Positions 25,352-33,120 of a stretch of DNA of 44,464 nucleotides are shown here, in pieces. Positions within the stretch are counted from its first letter, which is position 1. Every line of letters begins with the position of its first letter. A program made the translations under genes and the position numbers. A model generated the notes under the pieces. The model did not search any database. It was not told where the DNA came from and saw only the letters and a program-made list of their open reading frames with translations. Source of the DNA: a virus. Lineage: Duplodnaviria; Heunggongvirae; Uroviricota; Caudoviricetes. The stretch lies in the IMG/VR virus record IMGVR_UViG_2571042862_000006, positions 1 through 44,464 of that record, one strand, 5' to 3'.

Positions 25352-25716
25352 TATTGGATTCTCTGCATCATGAGAAAGACAATCATGGCGGCGCGGAGGG
25401 GATTTTCATGTATAGCTCGCTTAGATTTACAGTAGGCCACACCGCGTGCACCCCACTCGTCTTCATCGAGATTGATAATGCTAATCCTGTATTTTTCAAT
25501 AATCGGCCATGCGTCTGCTGGGTTTGCGCATGGGTTAAAGGATCCGCGCTCAACTTCTACTTCAACTGCGTCTCCGTTTACAATGTCTCCCTCAAATGAG
25601 ACAAACACCATATCGCCATTCTCACCTTCTTTGTAATCCGGTGATCCGTTATGAATGGCTTCGAATACCGCCACGTTAATTTCAAAATCACTTAACTGTG
25701 AATAATCCATTGTCAT
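25351..25716 (-). CDS. Hypothetical nin-region protein
   Basis: ORF with an acidic central region; start taken at the internal MTMDYSQL; no family recognised. Confidence 0.45.
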
Positions 25717-28378: not shown

Positions 28379-29252
28379 GAACTTTCAGGTAGGTATTATC
28401 GTTAAGCAGGAAATCAAATCCCTTTTTGTGCCAGACGGTTCCGCGTTGATGGTTTGGACGCTCTTCGAACATCCATCGGCAATTTTCGCCTACGTAGCTC
28501 AAATAATTTCTCCAGTCCTGCATCGTGAACCCATGCCCGTCAAGCTGGCGGGTTATCACTCCGGCTTTGCGCCAGAACGTTCGGATCTGGTTTTTACGCT
28601 TGTCATTCAGTGCGCGGATTTTTGGCGCTTCAGGAAGGATTTCGTTGTAAGCATCGACAACATCCTGACAGCTGACGGGAGGTTTTTTCTTGTCAGACTT
28701 TTTGTCTGCTGTGGCACTCTCTAATACGTCAGTATTAGAGATAATATTATTATATTCTTTATCTGTGGTAATTTGCTGGTAATCTGCTGGTACAGTATTG
28801 CTTACAGGCATTGGTATTGCTGGCTTTGAGGTGGTAATTTGCTGGTAATCTGCTGGTACAAAATTTGACTGATAATCGTCATATTTCTCTACCGAGAAAA
28901 CTGAGAATTTACCGTGTGAAACCCAGTCAATCATGCCGAGTTTTTTGAACTTTCTAAGCAGGTACTGAACGCGATCTGGTTTGAGTCCTGTTTCAAACGC
29001 CAGAGAGTTTCTACCGCCAAGTAGCTTCCCTCTGCCTACCAGAATTTCTCCTGCGTCAGTCATTACATACTCAGGCGTATGCTTTGCTTTGAGGATTAAG
29101 TGAACCCACAGATGCGCTGCTTCTGCGTCCTTGTAAAACGGCACATCCATAATTTTACGGTGCAGCAAGGCATACCCCTTACCGCTGCTTTGATGCGGTT
29201 GTTGTAGCCTTCTGGCCTCTCTGGCTTCGGCTAGATTAGATATGTTACTCAT
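28353..29252 (-). CDS. Replication initiator (lambda O / P22 gene 18 analogue) containing the ori iterons
   Basis: Position between cII and the helicase gene; internal iterons plus an AT-rich tract; duplicated peptide PADYQQITT encoded by the iterons. Confidence 0.7.
28765..28860. repeat. Replication-origin iterons: two 30-bp direct repeats, each holding two GCTGGTA(A/C) units, with an AT-rich tract at about 28736..28763
   Basis: GTGGTAATTTGCTGGTAATCTGCTGGTACA occurs at about 28765 and 28831; lambda-like ori architecture (iterons then AT-rich region inside the initiator gene). Confidence 0.6.
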
Positions 29253-29391
29253 GACCTTTCTCCTTCTGCATCAGCTTCACCTTTTCCAACTCAGCCCGGA
29301 ATCGACCAGGCTGCTTGAAGCTGGACAGGAAGCGATCACGTAGTATGTGTTTGTGAATTTTGTCCTGGTAAGGACTGAGTTGTTTTGTCAT
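29245..29391 (-). CDS. Small ORF (about 48 aa) between cII and the initiator gene
   Basis: Hand-translated minus-strand ORF ([15 protein letters not shown]...) preceded by GGAG; stop overlaps the initiator start. Not in the ORF track. Confidence 0.3.
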
Positions 29392-29423
29392 AATTACTCC
29401 TGTGGATTGATCCAGTAATTCCC

Positions 29424-29720
29424 TCAGAATTGCATATCAATTTGCTTAAAATCCTCGGTGGCGGCCGGGGATTTTTTCTTTGTGATTTCATCAAGCGCAT
29501 ACTTAAAAGCCCTGCTAATCGGACTGATGTCTGATGCCATTCCGAAAGCACACAAGACCGAAGCAATAAATCTCCAGTCCGTTCTGCTTATCTTCGATTC
29601 ATGACAGCCAATCATCTTTGCCAGACCGCGCTGGGTAAGCGTCGACAGGTTGATGAGTAAATCAGTTTCAGCGCGATCAATTTCTCGCTGTGTTGGCTTG
29701 CTGTAGCTTGCTTGTGCCAT
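29424..29720 (-). CDS. cII: CII-like transcriptional activator
   Basis: 98 aa, position after cro; HTH segment and C-terminal ...[18 protein letters not shown] resemble lambda CII. Confidence 0.7.
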
Positions 29721-29788
29721 TTGTTAATTTTCCTATATTGATATTGAGTTATAGCGGCACACCCAATGGATTTGCCGCTGATGTTTGC

Positions 29789-29828
29789 TCACCCGGTTAG
29801 AGGTGAAAGGCCATGACTGTTAAAGAGC
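29789..29828 (-). promoter_or_regulatory. nutR-like site: boxA (GCTCTTTAACA) plus boxB hairpin with loop CUAACC
   Basis: boxA is identical to the boxA upstream of N; the boxB-like hairpin shares the CTAACC loop with the nutL hairpin. Confidence 0.45.
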
Positions 29829-29837
29829 GGGTACTGC

Positions 29838-30056
29838 TTAGGCGGCTTTGTTACTGGATGGAGGGAAAACATCATCCAAAGAACATTGGCACCCTAACTT
29901 CCTGAGGCCTTCTACGATCATTCGGCAATCGTTAAGGCCAGGAGTACGGATATTCAGCTCATAGTTGGCGATGCGGGATTGCCCCCAACCAATTGCCGAA
30001 GCTAGTACAGCTTGCGAAACTCCGATTTTTTTTCGCTGCTGGGCAATTTTGTTCAT
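29838..30056 (-). CDS. cro: Cro-like HTH repressor
   Basis: Small HTH protein (QAVLASAIGWGQSRIANYE) divergent from cI; start at MNKIAQQRKK preceded by GGGAGA. Confidence 0.7.
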   Translation of the reverse strand: MNKIAQQRKKIGVSQAVLASAIGWGQSRIANYELNIRTPGLNDCRMIVEGLRKLGCQCSLDDVFPPSSNKAA

Positions 30057-30072
30057 TGCGGTCTCCCTAGCA

Positions 30073-30151
30073 TTAATCACACACCCATTACACACAATTT
30101 GTGATTAACAGTCAACCTCAATTCGTGTACAGAGTTCAATCACGTTGCGTG
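30073..30151. promoter_or_regulatory. OR operator / pR / pRM region
   Basis: Minus-strand pR: TTGACT, 17-bp spacer, TGTAAT. 11-bp dyads CACAATTTGTG (about 30093..30103) and CACGTTGCGTG (about 30141..30151); flanking 9-bp inverted repeat TTAATCACA / TGTGATTAA. Confidence 0.55.
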
Positions 30152-30164
30152 TTACATTTAAGGG

Positions 30165-30812
30165 ATGAAAACGATGCATGAAATTATCGGGGAAAGGATA
30201 AAGTCCCTTAGAGAAGCTAAAGGACTTAGCCAGGCTCAATTGGCCAAGCTTTGCGGCTGGGCTGCGCCTTCACGCCTGGGGAACTACGAGTTAGGAACAA
30301 GAAAGGTTAGCGCGGATGACGCGCTGGTTCTTGGGGCGGCACTCGGCGTATCTCCGGCAAAAATAATGTTTGGCGAGGATTCAGACGCCGTATTTCGCCA
30401 ATATGAATACCCGTTATTTTCTTCAGTGCAGGCCGGGCCATTTTCGGAGGTGGGAAGCTACACAGCCAGCGATGCAAAGGCATGGGTCCCAACGACCACA
30501 AAAGCCAGCGAAAAAGCTTTCTGGCTTGAGGTGAAGGGGCATTCAATGACGGCGCCTCAGGGGGTTCGTCCAAGTTTTCCGGAAGGCATGCTGATACTCG
30601 TTGATCCGGCTGAGCCGGTAGAGTCTGGGGATTTCTGCGTGGCTTCTGCAAATGGTGATTCAGAGGCAACGTTCAAGAAGTATGAGAAGGATGCAGGGGT
30701 TAGTTACCTGGTACCTTTAAACCCGGCATATAGAACCCTGGATTGCGACCATAGCTGCCGCATCATAGGCAAGGTAGTTAAGGCGCAGTGGCCTGAAGAG
30801 ACGTTTGGCTGA
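30165..30812 (+). CDS. cI: CI-type repressor (HTH plus S24 LexA-like autopeptidase domain)
   Basis: C-terminal domain resembles the P22 C2 repressor ([13 protein letters not shown]...EGMLILVDP...ATFKKY); N-terminal HTH; true start may be the second ATG at 30174. Confidence 0.85.
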
Positions 30813-30934
30813 TCGGCAAGGTGTTCTGGTCGGCGCATAGCTGGTAATCCAACTTTTCCCTGTTCTTTTTATGCAAATTAATCTAATGAAATTGAAAAGA
30901 TTTTTACCTATTTTGTTGGTTCAGGAGAACATAA

Positions 30935-31216
30935 GTGAGCGATAAACAAGAAGTTACCTTAGCACATATCAATGATGTGCTGGAGTCCAAAAATTATATT
31001 GAAACTAATGCTGATGGGGTTGTAACCATCGGAACGGATAACAATGGCTACGAAGTTTTTAACTTCGTTTTTCTCAATAGCACCCCTGTCATCGGCCATA
31101 TGAATGGCGAAATCGCAGTGGCAGGAATGCAGCGCACTAAGGTTGCGTCCGTGACTTTAAGTAAACAGAAGGCCTTCGATTTCTATCAGTCCTTGAAAAG
31201 CATGTTCGAGGAATAA
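30935..31216 (+). CDS. Hypothetical protein, 93 aa, first gene of the rex-position cassette
   Basis: GTG start preceded by AGGAGA; AT-rich; no family recognised. Confidence 0.55.
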   Translation: MSDKQEVTLAHINDVLESKNYIETNADGVVTIGTDNNGYEVFNFVFLNSTPVIGHMNGEIAVAGMQRTKVASVTLSKQKAFDFYQSLKSMFEE

Positions 31217-31222
31217 AAGCTG

Positions 31223-31774
31223 ATGAATGCAGCTCAATCATCTTTGGATGAGGGAAAGCTAGTAATTGCTTACTCTGATAAGAATGGCTCTACAGTAGGG
31301 CTGGAATTTTCTTCTGTAGCATCAAGCCAAGCAACGCTCTTGATGAAAGCTTGTTCTGTTGCTGCTTCAGATAAAGAAAAACGGATTGTCACATCGGTTG
31401 TGATGGATGATACTGAGATCATTCAAACAACAAGTGATGATGGAGGCGACGACATGGATAAGCGATTAGCAGTTCTTGAAGCTGAAGTTGCGCACATCAA
31501 GAGCAGCATGGCAGGAATTAAAGAGGATACCCGGAAAATATCTTCTGATTCTACTGACGCCAAAAGAGACACCGCTGTACTTTTACAGAAGAGCCTGGAT
31601 TTTGATGCTTCATTATCTAAGAAACCATCGGTTGACTACTTTGAAGCTAAATTTTCCGCTTTGGAAACCAAGATAGCAGATGTAAAAGTATGGATGCTCG
31701 GGGTTCTCCTGGCCTCGCTTGCTATGCCAACTATATTTTTCCTAATAAACTTGTACCTTAAGAAAGGTCAGTAA
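31223..31774 (+). CDS. Hypothetical membrane-anchored protein, 183 aa, second gene of the rex-position cassette
   Basis: Starts 6 nt after the upstream gene; predicted coiled-coil segment and a single C-terminal transmembrane helix (VWMLGVLLASLAMPTIFFLINLYL); followed by a terminator. Confidence 0.55.
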   Translation: MNAAQSSLDEGKLVIAYSDKNGSTVGLEFSSVASSQATLLMKACSVAASDKEKRIVTSVVMDDTEIIQTTSDDGGDDMDKRLAVLEAEVAHIKSSMAGIKEDTRKISSDSTDAKRDTAVLLQKSLDFDASLSKKPSVDYFEAKFSALETKIADVKVWMLGVLLASLAMPTIFFLINLYLKKGQ

Positions 31775-31783
31775 TTTAGCAAA

Positions 31784-31808
31784 TCCGGCCACCGAGCCGG
31801 GTTTTTTA
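31784..31808 (+). terminator. Rho-independent terminator ending the cI / rex-position operon
   Basis: Stem CCGGC / GCCGG with 6-nt loop followed by GTTTTTTATT. Confidence 0.6.
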
Positions 31809-32020
31809 TTGCCCGCCGATCACTATCAGGACAGCACCTTCCCGCCGGTCCAAACTATTGATTAAATTACTATAATTCTTAATACAACTCCCATATCCCG
31901 CCATCTCACCACCACCCCATTCGCTCGTTTTTCGAACTTTTCAGCACCCATCCTGCTGTTGCCACCGACTTAAGTAAGCAAAACCATCGCGGGTAAAACT
32001 ATTTACACAACAAAATCATA

Positions 32021-32088
32021 CACATAACGTGTCACACCTTTATTTTACACATTTTGTGATTGACCATTAAATCACAATATGTGACTAT
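32021..32088 (+). promoter_or_regulatory. OL operators and pL promoter
   Basis: Three 11-bp dyads CACATAACGTG, CACATTTTGTG, CACAATATGTG spaced about 25-27 bp; candidate pL TTGACC, 17-bp spacer, GACTAT. Confidence 0.5.
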
Positions 32089-32136
32089 CATTTCCATCAG
32101 CAGGACGCTGAGACGCCACAAGGAACAGATTGGCAG

Positions 32137-32176
32137 GCTCTTTAACATCGACGGACTCTCAACCTAACCGTTGAGA
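32137..32176 (+). promoter_or_regulatory. nutL-like site: boxA GCTCTTTAACA plus boxB hairpin TCTCAAC-CTAACC-GTTGAGA
   Basis: Perfect 7-bp stem with 6-nt loop, 10 nt after boxA, upstream of the N-like gene. Confidence 0.5.
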
Positions 32177-32286
32177 CCAGAACTTGAGTGGTTTTGGGGA
32201 TGGCGCGAATTGCAGCTGCAAGACAGCGATCGAGAAGATAAGCACCTCGACGCGTCATGCGCCAAAGCCACTTAAAGGAGACCATC

Positions 32287-32559
32287 ATGGTAACCATTGT
32301 CTGGAAAGAATCCAAAGGTACGGCAAAAAGCCGCTACAAAGCTCGCAGAGCAGAACTTATTGCCGAGCGACGCAGTAATGAAGCACTGGCGCGAAAAATT
32401 GCGCTAAAGCTCTCTGGTTGCGTCAGAGCAGACAAAGCAGCATCACTCGGAAGCCTTTGCTGCAAGGAAGAAGATGAACGCAGTGGAAGTATTTGCCTGC
32501 CAAACGTAGCCATTTACGCGGCAGGATACCGGAAATCAAAACAACTGACGGCGAGGTAA
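32287..32559 (+). CDS. N: N-type antiterminator (P22 gene 24-like)
   Basis: N-terminal arginine-rich motif (GTAKSRYKARRAELIAERRSN); C-terminus LPNVAIYAAGYRKSKQLTAR resembles the P22 gp24 C-terminus; AAGGAG before the ATG. Confidence 0.8.
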   Translation: MVTIVWKESKGTAKSRYKARRAELIAERRSNEALARKIALKLSGCVRADKAASLGSLCCKEEDERSGSICLPNVAIYAAGYRKSKQLTAR

Positions 32560-32562
32560 GTG

Positions 32563-32787
32563 ATGAATCAGACATACATTCCATCATGCTTGAGAAATCT
32601 GCCAAAGCAGAAAGCAAAGCCCCGCAAGCAAGCCATAAAGGACGCTAAGGCAGAGGTTATTGATCAAGCAATACAATTGCTCAGGGAGGAGTTAAGAAGT
32701 GGCAAGCTCGAAGGAATGATGATGCCCTATCAGCGCGGATATCTATCGGCGATTAGTAAGCTGGAAGTATTGAAGAGTGAATTATGA
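32563..32787 (+). CDS. Hypothetical early-left protein, 74 aa
   Basis: ORF immediately after N with a GAGG Shine-Dalgarno. Confidence 0.4.
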   Translation: MNQTYIPSCLRNLPKQKAKPRKQAIKDAKAEVIDQAIQLLREELRSGKLEGMMMPYQRGYLSAISKLEVLKSEL

Positions 32788-32849
32788 ACTATCTGGAATT
32801 TCCGGATGGTTCATTGTTTTGGCAGCAAACCACTTATTTGAGGTGAGAT

Positions 32850-32936
32850 ATGGAAGAAGAATTTGAAGAGTTCGAAGAGCATCCGCAGGATGTGATGGAA
32901 CAATACCAGGACTATCCGTATGACTACGACTATTGA
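32850..32936 (+). CDS. Very acidic 28-aa peptide (MEEEFEEFEEHPQDVMEQYQDYPYDYDY)
   Basis: Hand-translated; strong Shine-Dalgarno (GAGGTGA) 5 nt upstream; below the ORF-track threshold. Confidence 0.3.
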   Translation: MEEEFEEFEEHPQDVMEQYQDYPYDYDY

Positions 32937-33120
32937 TACAAATCAATGGTGTGGACAATTCAAGCGATGCAATGGATGCAAGCTGCAATCGGAATGCATG
33001 GTTAAGCCTGAAGAAATGTTTCCTGTAATGGAAGATGGGAAATATGTCGATAAATGGGCAATACGAACGACGGCAATGATTGCCAGAGAACTTGGTAAAC
33101 AGAATAACAAGGCTGCCTGA
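32920..33120 (+). CDS. Small Cys-rich (zinc-ribbon-like) protein
   Basis: 66-aa ORF with CGQFKRCNGCKLQSEC. Confidence 0.4.
   Translation: MTTTIDTNQWCGQFKRCNGCKLQSECMVKPEEMFPVMEDGKYVDKWAIRTTAMIARELGKQNNKAA

Follow-up and report, generated by a model that had tools for sequence, protein, structure and literature searches.

The stretch of DNA analysed here (44,464 bp, called the window below) very probably carries, in inverted orientation, the part of a lambdoid prophage responsible for immunity and early control, with six operators for cI and Cro, the N/nut system of phage 21, and an immunity cassette that is separate from the latter.

Layout of the switch

The genes cI and cro lie on opposite strands, a LexA-like repressor (HTH plus S24 peptidase) being encoded divergently from a small HTH Cro. 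Three dyads are found between these two genes and another three upstream of N, giving a tripartite operator on either side. The features of the switch are as follows (AP000400 is the record of phage VT1-Sakai; the operators are listed without a strand).

29424..29720, minus strand: cII, in a phage-21-like flank (Pfam Phage_CII, E=2.7e-33)
29698: CII box (pRE), TTGCTGTAGCTTGC, a sequence match, carried by cII
29838..30056, minus strand: cro, for a 72-aa HTH_3-type Cro with recognition helix GWGQSRIANYEL (Pfam HTH_3)
30087..30115, minus strand: putative pR, -35 TTGACT at 30115-30110, 17-nt spacer, -10 TGTAAT at 30092-30087 (putative pR in AP000400)
30090..30106: putative OR1, ACACACAATTTGTGATT, from strict dyad, weight matrix and conservation ("putative operator" in AP000400)
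30114..30130: putative OR2, AACCTCAATTCGTGTAC, given also as CTCAATTCGTG, one half-site degenerate ("putative operator" in AP000400)
30138..30154: putative OR3, AATCACGTTGCGTGTTA, from strict dyad, weight matrix and conservation (also in AP000400)
30150..30158, plus strand: candidate extended -10 of pRM, TGTTACATT, ending 6 nt before the cI ATG, from sequence and conserved geometry
30165..30812, plus strand: cI, N-terminal HTH and lambda-like S24 C-terminal domain (Pfam Peptidase_S24, E=3e-26; HTH_3)
30935..31774, plus strand: two ORFs of 93 and 183 aa in the rexAB position, in the same orientation as cI
31781..31804, plus strand: predicted intrinsic terminator ending the cI operon (also in AP000400)
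32018..32034: putative OL3, ATACACATAACGTGTCA, from strict dyad, weight matrix and alignment (also in AP000400)
32045..32061: putative OL2, TTACACATTTTGTGATT, from strict dyad, weight matrix and alignment (also in AP000400)
32070..32086: putative OL1, AATCACAATATGTGACT, from strict dyad, weight matrix and alignment (also in AP000400)
32060..32088, plus strand: putative pL, -35 TTGACC at 32060-32065, 17-nt spacer, -10 GACTAT at 32083-32088 (putative pL in AP000400)

There is strong support in the sequence for taking the dyads as the cores of six 17-bp operators (OR1-3 and OL1-3), which would overlap pR, pRM and pL as in lambda. The five dyads of the form CAC(A/G)-N3-(T/C)GTG that a first-pass annotation had named, at 30093 and 30141 in OR and at 32021, 32048 and 32073 in OL, are all present. 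The same annotation had counted at least two at OR; the two strict dyads stand, and the degenerate OR2 had been overlooked. OR2 lies exactly 24 bp from both OR1 and OR3 and has the sixth-best weight-matrix score in the window. Relatives keep it at this position, most of them with a weak half, and GF-2 and ECP1 with both halves intact. In the window only one half-site is good, and that the site is occupied is assumed because of where it lies. The dyad centres fall at 30098, 30122 and 30146 in OR and at 32078, 32053 and 32026 in OL, and the half-site consensus over the six 17-bp dyads is A-A-W-C-A-C-R-W-W.

The overlap of the dyads with the pR and pL hexamers, also claimed earlier, holds: OR1 and OL1 occupy spacer sequence and run into the -10, and both OR2 and OL2 touch a -35. 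A generic sigma-70 promoter scan called neither pR nor pL because of its strict -10 rules (TGTAAT is without A at position 2, and GACTAT is a 3/6 match), and both were located manually and from conservation. In the pR of 43 relatives neither TTGAC nor TAAT of the -10 varies, and TTGAC of pL is kept in all but one of 42 aligned OL sequences. For pRM, the geometry GTG-n-TAnnnT-6 nt-ATG is kept in those relatives that were inspected in the OR alignment, not every row having been tallied, while the first ATG of cI is conserved in all of them (43 distinct). A pRM -10 that ends 6 nt from this ATG would imply a leaderless cI mRNA, as in lambda. (The pRM location given in AP000400 is slightly different.) The two ORFs in the rex position belong to PHROG families of unknown function, gave no PADLOC hit, and are 99.5% shared with HK544.

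Occurrence, conservation and probable readers of the dyads

The operator assignment draws its support from the fixed positions of the dyads in relatives, their invariant CAC and GTG, the recognition helix common to cI and Cro, and the absence of the dyads from three checked phages where the Cro helix differs. The relatives comprise 80 IMG/VR loci (43 of them distinct) with Cro 77-100% identical, and in every one there is a strict dyad near -42 and near -90 from the cro ATG. In most of these loci a triplet with 25/27-bp spacing occurs 1.6-2.9 kb upstream, and beyond these sites there are almost no dyad matches in 254 kb of the relatives' sequence. Alignments of O1 and O3 keep CAC and GTG invariant, with a variable central N3 and variable flanks. 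The same dyads and layout are found in phages of Salmonella, Edwardsiella, Actinobacillus, Aeromonas and E. coli whose Cro is 52-83% identical.

Which protein would read these sites? The recognition helix common to cI and Cro has the form GW..SR[LI][GA]NYEL. Its pairing with the operator (GW..SR..NYE with TCACR-N3-YGTGA) is conserved across phages of Enterobacterales, Pasteurellaceae and Aeromonas, and IMG/VR contains 483 relatives. The CAC-N5-GTG dyad is absent from phages L, 2851 and PSA-2T, the three checked whose Cro homologues carry the helix TQGAIGH[YW]E. Mannheimia phage 535AP2, a relative in which the Cro helix is related but altered (GQPRIANYE), has no strict dyad and a different inverted-repeat layout.

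It is very unlikely that the dyads are instead bound by a CRP-like host factor, or by Cro only, with cI binding elsewhere. The half-sites TCACA and TGTGA do resemble those of CRP, for which the consensus is TGTGA-N6-TCACA, but in the window their order is TCACA-N3-TGTGA, that is, inverted and with the wrong spacing, and the dyads follow the phage-encoded helix across hosts of three bacterial orders. That helix is common to cI and Cro, and neither the sequence nor the relatives' alignments show a further evident repeated dyad in OR or OL.

The dyads are also rare. A scan of the whole window with CACRNNNYGTG gives six matches in total, of which the sixth, at 25438, is unrelated and in coding DNA; the first-pass annotation would have given up its reading had such dyads been similarly frequent in coding DNA, and the other 44.3 kb contain this one match. 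Dinucleotide shuffling gives P=0.00055 for at least two matches in the 96-bp OR segment, and the three matches of the 106-bp OL segment were reached by 0 of 20,000 shuffles. The position-specific scoring that had been proposed earlier, run with a symmetric 17-bp weight matrix derived from the six sites themselves, ranks these sites 1-6 among 44,448 positions; when each site is left out in turn the ranks are 3-6, and 18 for OR2. That the dyads are a chance product of the composition of AT-rich promoter DNA (for example, the TGTG of an extended -10) and mark no protein site is next to negligible: OR and OL are indeed AT-rich intergenic DNA, and the whole-window shuffle alone is modestly significant (six matches in 3 of 100 shuffles), but neither these points nor the lone coding match accounts for the regional shuffles, for dyads held in place in 43 distinct relatives amid variable neighbours, or for their absence from the equivalent promoter regions where the Cro helix differs.

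With the dyads read as cI and Cro operators, LexA-like cI dimers would bind all six through the HTH recognition helix, and Cro, whose helix is nearly the same, may bind them as well. Bound at OR1/OR2 and OL1/OL2, cI would occlude pR and pL, because O1 sits within the spacer, overlapping the -10, and O2 directly adjoins the -35. Cooperative binding through the lambda-like C-terminal domain probably fills the weak OR2. The centre of this site precedes the cI ATG by about 43 bp, and from there the repressor could activate pRM, and OR3, which overlaps pRM, would allow autorepression by cI and repression by Cro. The cI protein is 48% identical overall to lambda cI, the similarity lying chiefly in the C-terminal domain, which is the part matching 3BDN (residues 73-212). 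Its VQAG, GHSM and TFKK align with the lambda autocleavage residues Ala-Gly (A111-G112), Ser (S149) and Lys (K192). RecA-stimulated self-cleavage at these conserved residues would then lead to prophage induction, and the firing of pL and pR would give transcripts bearing nutL and nutR.

The N/nut module

The antitermination elements are placed on either side of the switch:

29788..29807, minus strand: nutR boxB, UUCACCUCUAACCGGGUGAG, 7-bp stem and CUAACC loop, identical to phage 21 nutR
29818..29828, minus strand: nutR boxA, GCTCTTTAACA, rrn-like (boxA-R in phage 21 record OL657228)
32137..32147, plus strand: nutL boxA, GCTCTTTAACA (boxA-L in the phage 21 record)
32157..32176, plus strand: nutL boxB, UCUCAACCUAACCGUUGAGA, 7-bp stem and CUAACC loop, identical to phage 21 nutL (fold z=-7.4)
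32287..32559, plus strand: N antiterminator (Pfam N_peptide)

That nutL and nutR share an identical boxA is borne out, as GCTCTTTAACA occurs exactly twice, at 32137-32147 on the plus strand and at 29818-29828 on the minus strand. The common boxB loop claimed earlier is confirmed too: in both folds a 7-bp stem closes a CUAACC hexaloop, and the stem sequences differ. An rrn-like boxA followed by a CUAACC boxB hairpin is thus found in both the pL and the pR transcript, which makes these sites phage 21-type. (No Rfam family, whether boxB, nut, oop or any other, matched 28800-33000 at E<=1.)

Residues 8-29 of N, the arginine-rich motif, are identical to chain A of PDB 1NYB. The first ~55 residues are identical to those of phage 21 N, and the last ~27 are unrelated. 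PMC9074901 credits Franklin 1985 with the definition of the phage 21 determinants. As the C-terminal 27 residues differ, full function of this N is an assumption, made by analogy with gp24 of P22 and L, two proteins that can replace one another although their C-termini are unrelated (bioRxiv 10.1101/2020.10.05.325894). The arginine-rich motif of N would bind the CUAACC boxB hairpin, NusB/NusE would bind the rrn-like boxA, and the complex of N, nut and Nus factors would make RNA polymerase resistant to termination, a mechanism reviewed in PMC8632103.

Judged by sequence comparison, N/nut is a phage 21 module, separate from the VT1-Sakai/mEpX1 immunity cassette, which occupies 29849-32093 of the window. 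Homology to phage 21 breaks off where cro ends (29848) and at the start of pL (32094), and the cII flank (29384-29848) is 92% identical to that phage. The first-pass annotation had proposed that the dyads define the repressor operator and the nut sites the N recognition element of this immunity type. Both elements are upheld, but not the tie between them, as the same cI/cro/operator cassette is found beside at least six boxB types in IMG/VR, those of lambda and P22 included.

That operators and nut sites jointly define one immunity type, N specificity included, is most improbable. N and nut do adjoin the immunity genes, in the window as in the classical imm21 substitution, and nutL, nutR and N of the window match one another. 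Phage 21, however, combines these nut sites and this N-terminal half of N with a cI, a cro and operators that are unrelated to those of the window. Among loci whose Cro is 100% identical, phage-21-type, P22-type (GCGCTGACAAAGCGC) and other boxB types occur, and the lambda type (GCCCTGAAAAAGGGC) is found in more distant members of the cassette. The joints of the cassette, moreover, are at the cro stop and the pL start, on a conserved CCATCAGCAGGACGC.

Comparison with known systems

In its architecture the switch is like that of lambda: operators are 17-bp dyads, three per side, with O1 in the promoter spacer and cI and cro divergent. Centre spacings are 24/24 (OR) and 25/27 (OL) in the window and 24/23 and 24/20 in lambda, and an outer core of A2, C4, A5 and C6 (ATCAC...GTGAT) is common to both. 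The C-terminal domain of cI is highly similar and keeps the cleavage residues. The DNA-binding domains differ, by contrast, with PSRLGNYEL in the recognition helix as against QSGVGALFN in lambda, and so does the inner half-site (R-W-W versus C-G-C). Cro is of HTH_3 type in the window and is labelled "Cro/CI family" in the lambda record.

Because the ATCAC core is shared, the six sites were also considered as lambda operators (half-site TATCACCGC). They score -7.8 to 9.4 with the lambda matrix, compared to 13.5 to 22.4 for lambda's own operators, and that matrix puts five of the six at 513th or worse in the window. Lambda immunity specificity is ruled out by these cross-scans together with the separate immunity group of mEpX1, which forms double lysogens with lambda (PMC3442831). 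The immunity is not imm21 either: between 29849 and 32093 there is no DNA homology to phage 21, whose unrelated operators are 18-mers of the form ATTTAAGA..TCTTAAAT. It is in the N/nut part that the window agrees with that phage: boxA and boxB are base-for-base identical and occupy equivalent positions, with pL and N flanking one site and cro and cII the other, except that the last ~27 residues of N are unrelated.

Is there anything new in this switch? As an ordinary lambda-like switch of an E. coli prophage it is already known, having been annotated as putative in VT1-Sakai in 2000. Alone, the result has little importance, since a regulatory map is re-derived for a common E. coli cassette that the Stx1 prophage of O157:H7 Sakai also carries; of 5,426 complete E. 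coli genomes, 105 (~2%) have the cro-OR-cI segment at >=99% identity. Its by-products are comparative evidence for the reality of operators called "putative" in 2000, a 17-bp consensus and recognition-helix signature by which the immunity group could be predicted from sequence, and a clean case of immunity and N/nut specificity assorting independently at fixed joints. A more ambitious reading, which we consider possible but doubtful, is that the cassette is a natural chimera of the lambda switch, combining lambda's cooperativity and cleavage domain and operator architecture with a different helix, shared with an HTH-type Cro. If the ATCAC core reflects descent and not coincidence, this would be a tractable system for a change of repressor specificity under a fixed switch architecture. 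(The 17-bp sites, the ATCAC...GTGAT outer core and the ~24-bp spacing are the lambda features that the cassette keeps.)

Of the known lambdoid operators with which the first-pass annotation suggested a comparison, those of the VT1-Sakai/mEpX1 group match. DNA identity to this group is 98.9-99.8% and Cro is 100% identical to that of both phages. The immunity region of VT1-Sakai (Sp15) was reportedly treated by Yokoyama et al. in 2000. Its counterpart in EDL933 is CP-933V, the control elements of which were still termed "putative" in 2013 (PMC3610611). A literature search on the repressors of VT1-Sakai, CP-933V, Sp15 and mEpX1 (Yokoyama et al. 2000 lying outside it) returned "putative" mentions only, with no DNase footprint, EMSA or operator genetics. 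The window is 98.9% identical to VT1-Sakai over 29384-32555, and AP000400, aligned with a coordinate offset of +28902 that was checked against the cro and cI ends, has the same cI, cro, six operators, pR, pRM, pL and nut sites, all annotated as putative. VT1-Sakai differs in having a nutR boxA that is 3 bp shorter, and in being an Stx phage, whereas the window is not one and its virion half is P22-like and IME10-like. With mEpX1 the identity is 99.8% over cII-cro-OR-cI, but that phage has other cargo genes between cI and OL and another C-terminus of N.

Layout and prior annotation of the control region

Sequence reading and the ORF listing show an inverted lambdoid early-control region within 29300-32700, in the order cII, nutR, cro, an intergenic segment, cI, two ORFs, a terminator, a second intergenic segment, nutL and N.

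Features of the control region
29424-29720, minus strand: cII (Pfam Phage_CII)
29838-30056, minus strand: cro (Pfam HTH_3)
between cro and cI: intergenic segment of about 100 bp
30115-30087, minus strand: pR (TTGACT, 17 nt, TGTAAT)
30165-30812, plus strand: cI (Pfam HTH and Peptidase_S24)
30935-31216 and 31223-31774, plus strand: two ORFs of unknown function at the rexAB position, between cI and the terminator
31781-31804: terminator
32060-32088: pL (TTGACC, 17 nt, GACTAT)
32287-32559, plus strand: N (Pfam N_peptide)

Prophage VT1-Sakai and phiSTEC801-Stx1a match the region at about 99% identity, and mEpX1 matches its cII-cro-OR-cI part at 99.8%. The cro-OR-cI segment occurs at 99% identity or more in 105 of 5,426 complete E. 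coli genomes. In the VT1-Sakai record (AP000400), OR and OL are each marked with three "putative operator" features which, once a 3-bp indel in nutR is corrected, are exactly the six 17-bp sites treated here (OR1-3 and OL1-3); putative pR, pRM, pL, nutL and nutR are annotated as well. All these features, which follow the textbook pattern of lambda, were annotated in 2000. The left part of the window (1-25000) is 96% identical to phage IME10 and encodes a P22-like virion (portal, terminase, coat, tailspike), so the element is a P22-like phage with a VT1-Sakai/mEpX1 immunity cassette rather than a Stx phage.

The two ORFs at the rexAB position match HK544 at 99.5%; of the immunity cassette, this match includes just the 3' end of cI. 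They belong to PHROG families of unknown function, gave no hit in a PADLOC search, and are candidate cargo genes expressed in the lysogen.

The proposed operator dyads

The pattern CACRNNNYGTG (the strict dyad) has six matches in the window, five of them exactly where the first-pass annotation had placed its proposed repressor operators. The dyads are not similarly frequent elsewhere: only one match lies in the 44.3 kb outside the OR and OL segments, and in dinucleotide shuffles the observed count gave P=0.00055 for the OR intergenic segment and was reached in 0 of 20,000 shuffles for the OL segment. Across the 17-bp sites, the half-sites follow the consensus A-A-W-C-A-C-R-W-W: C4 and C6 hold in all 12 and A5 in 11. 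In a symmetric weight-matrix scan of 44,448 positions the six sites take ranks 1-6, the last being OR2 (30114-30130), which is degenerate and sits exactly 24 bp from both OR1 and OR3. At pR and pL alike, O1 lies inside the spacer, overlapping the -10, and O2 abuts the -35. About 20 bp upstream of OL3 there is a lone half-site-like TTACACAA (32003-32010), with TCACA at the equivalent position in many relatives; it could be a partial fourth site.

The recognition helix GW(x)SR[LI][GA]NYEL is common to cI and Cro, as expected of two proteins competing for the same sites. Cro homologues of 52-83% identity in phages of Salmonella (S107), Edwardsiella (GF-2), Actinobacillus (pPE4), Aeromonas (pAEv1818) and E. 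coli (ECP1) keep the helix as well as the dyads and their arrangement; in GF-2 and ECP1 there are three at OR and three at OL. Negative controls came from Cro homologues with a different helix, TQGAIGH[YW]E (phages L, 2851 and PSA-2T; 42-49% identity): the cI and cro neighbourhoods retrieved for them contain no CAC-N5-GTG dyad. An IMG/VR scan returned 483 relatives, from which 80 loci, 43 of them distinct, were fetched. Strict dyads lie near -42 and -90 relative to the cro ATG in all 43, and a triplet spaced by 25/27 bp lies 1.6-2.9 kb upstream in most, independently of the intervening cargo; further matches are almost absent across the 254 kb of these loci. In alignments of relatives, CAC and GTG are invariant at O1 and O3, the central three bases and flanks vary, and at both promoters the -35 TTGAC is essentially invariant. 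One half-site of OR2 is degenerate in most relatives; both are intact in GF-2 and ECP1. Five loci (L037, L039, L042, L046 and L055) have an extra strict dyad within cI, about -505 from the cro ATG, which the window lacks.

Comparative support for the proposed operators is strong, and the dyads are well supported as putative repressor sites. No footprinting or operator genetics of the VT1-Sakai/mEpX1-type repressor was found in the literature, and in 2013 a study deleting the CP-933V control region was still describing its promoters and operators as putative (PMC3610611).

Nut sites and the modularity of N

The nut sites were read correctly as such: the boxA sequence GCTCTTTAACA occurs exactly twice in the window, and both boxB elements fold as 7-bp stems of differing sequence with a CUAACC loop. 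No base of boxA or boxB differs from the nutL and nutR annotated in phage 21, and residues 8-29 of N match exactly the phage 21 peptide whose structure with boxB is known (PDB 1NYB), which points to the established mechanism. The arginine-rich motif of N would bind boxB and NusB/NusE would bind boxA, turning the polymerase termination-resistant (PMC8632103; Franklin 1985, as cited in PMC9074901). The nutR boxA of VT1-Sakai, GCTCTTTCA followed by a gap and T against window 29818-29830, lacks 3 bp relative to the GCTCTTTAACAGT shared by the window, mEpX1 and phage 21. This variant, also found in IMG/VR loci of the L021 group, might weaken NusB/E binding at nutR in the Stx1 prophage.

Do these sites also define the N recognition element of this immunity type, as had been claimed? 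They belong instead to a phage 21 module. In IMG/VR the cassette is joined to boxB elements of phage-21 type, lambda type (GCCCTGAAAAAGGGC), P22 type (GCGCTGACAAAGCGC) and the GGCTGAAAAGCC, TCCCGCCGAAATGCGGGA and CCCGCCCTTGTGGG types, even among loci with 100% identical Cro; N/nut specificity is therefore no property of this immunity type. The cassette is joined at the cro stop codon on one side and, on the other, at a conserved CCATCAGCAGGACGC where the pL transcript starts (32094-32108); this sequence recurs in phage 21 and almost every relative, regardless of the nut type after it, and marks the left joint.

Relation to phage 21 and lambda

Homology to phage 21 is confined to 29384-29848 and 32094-32478, and its operators, 18-mers ATTTAAGA..TCTTAAAT, are unrelated to those of the window. 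The last ~27 residues of N are also unrelated to phage 21 N, with a mosaic joint near 32478; by analogy with lambda N they may be the RNA polymerase-binding part. Phage 21 and mEpX1 N share a different C-terminus, and the ECP1 locus is 82% identical to the window DNA at 32478-32559.

Overall, the window cI shares 48% identity with lambda cI, with the similarity concentrated in the C-terminal domain, the part matching PDB 3BDN (residues 73-212); it retains the cleavage residues (Ala-Gly, Ser and Lys), and its N-terminal domain is divergent. A 62-bp stretch spanning the cI stop (30786-30847) is 98% identical to lambda and is likely a recombination joint; in DNA comparison the remainder of cI reaches only ~70% identity or does not align. 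The first cI ATG (30165) is kept in 43/43 relatives and the second (30174, the AP000400 start) is not conserved; the annotated VT1-Sakai start is probably 9 nt too late. A TGnTAnnnT element ends 6 nt before the conserved ATG and the centre of OR2 lies 43 bp upstream of that ATG, which suggests a lambda-like, OR2-activated pRM and a leaderless cI mRNA. The operators share with those of lambda their 17-bp length, ~24-bp centre spacing and A2/C4/A5/C6 outer core, but differ at the inner positions, and with a lambda weight matrix five of the six rank 513th or worse in the window. mEpX1 is listed in a separate immunity group and forms double lysogens with lambda (PMC3442831).
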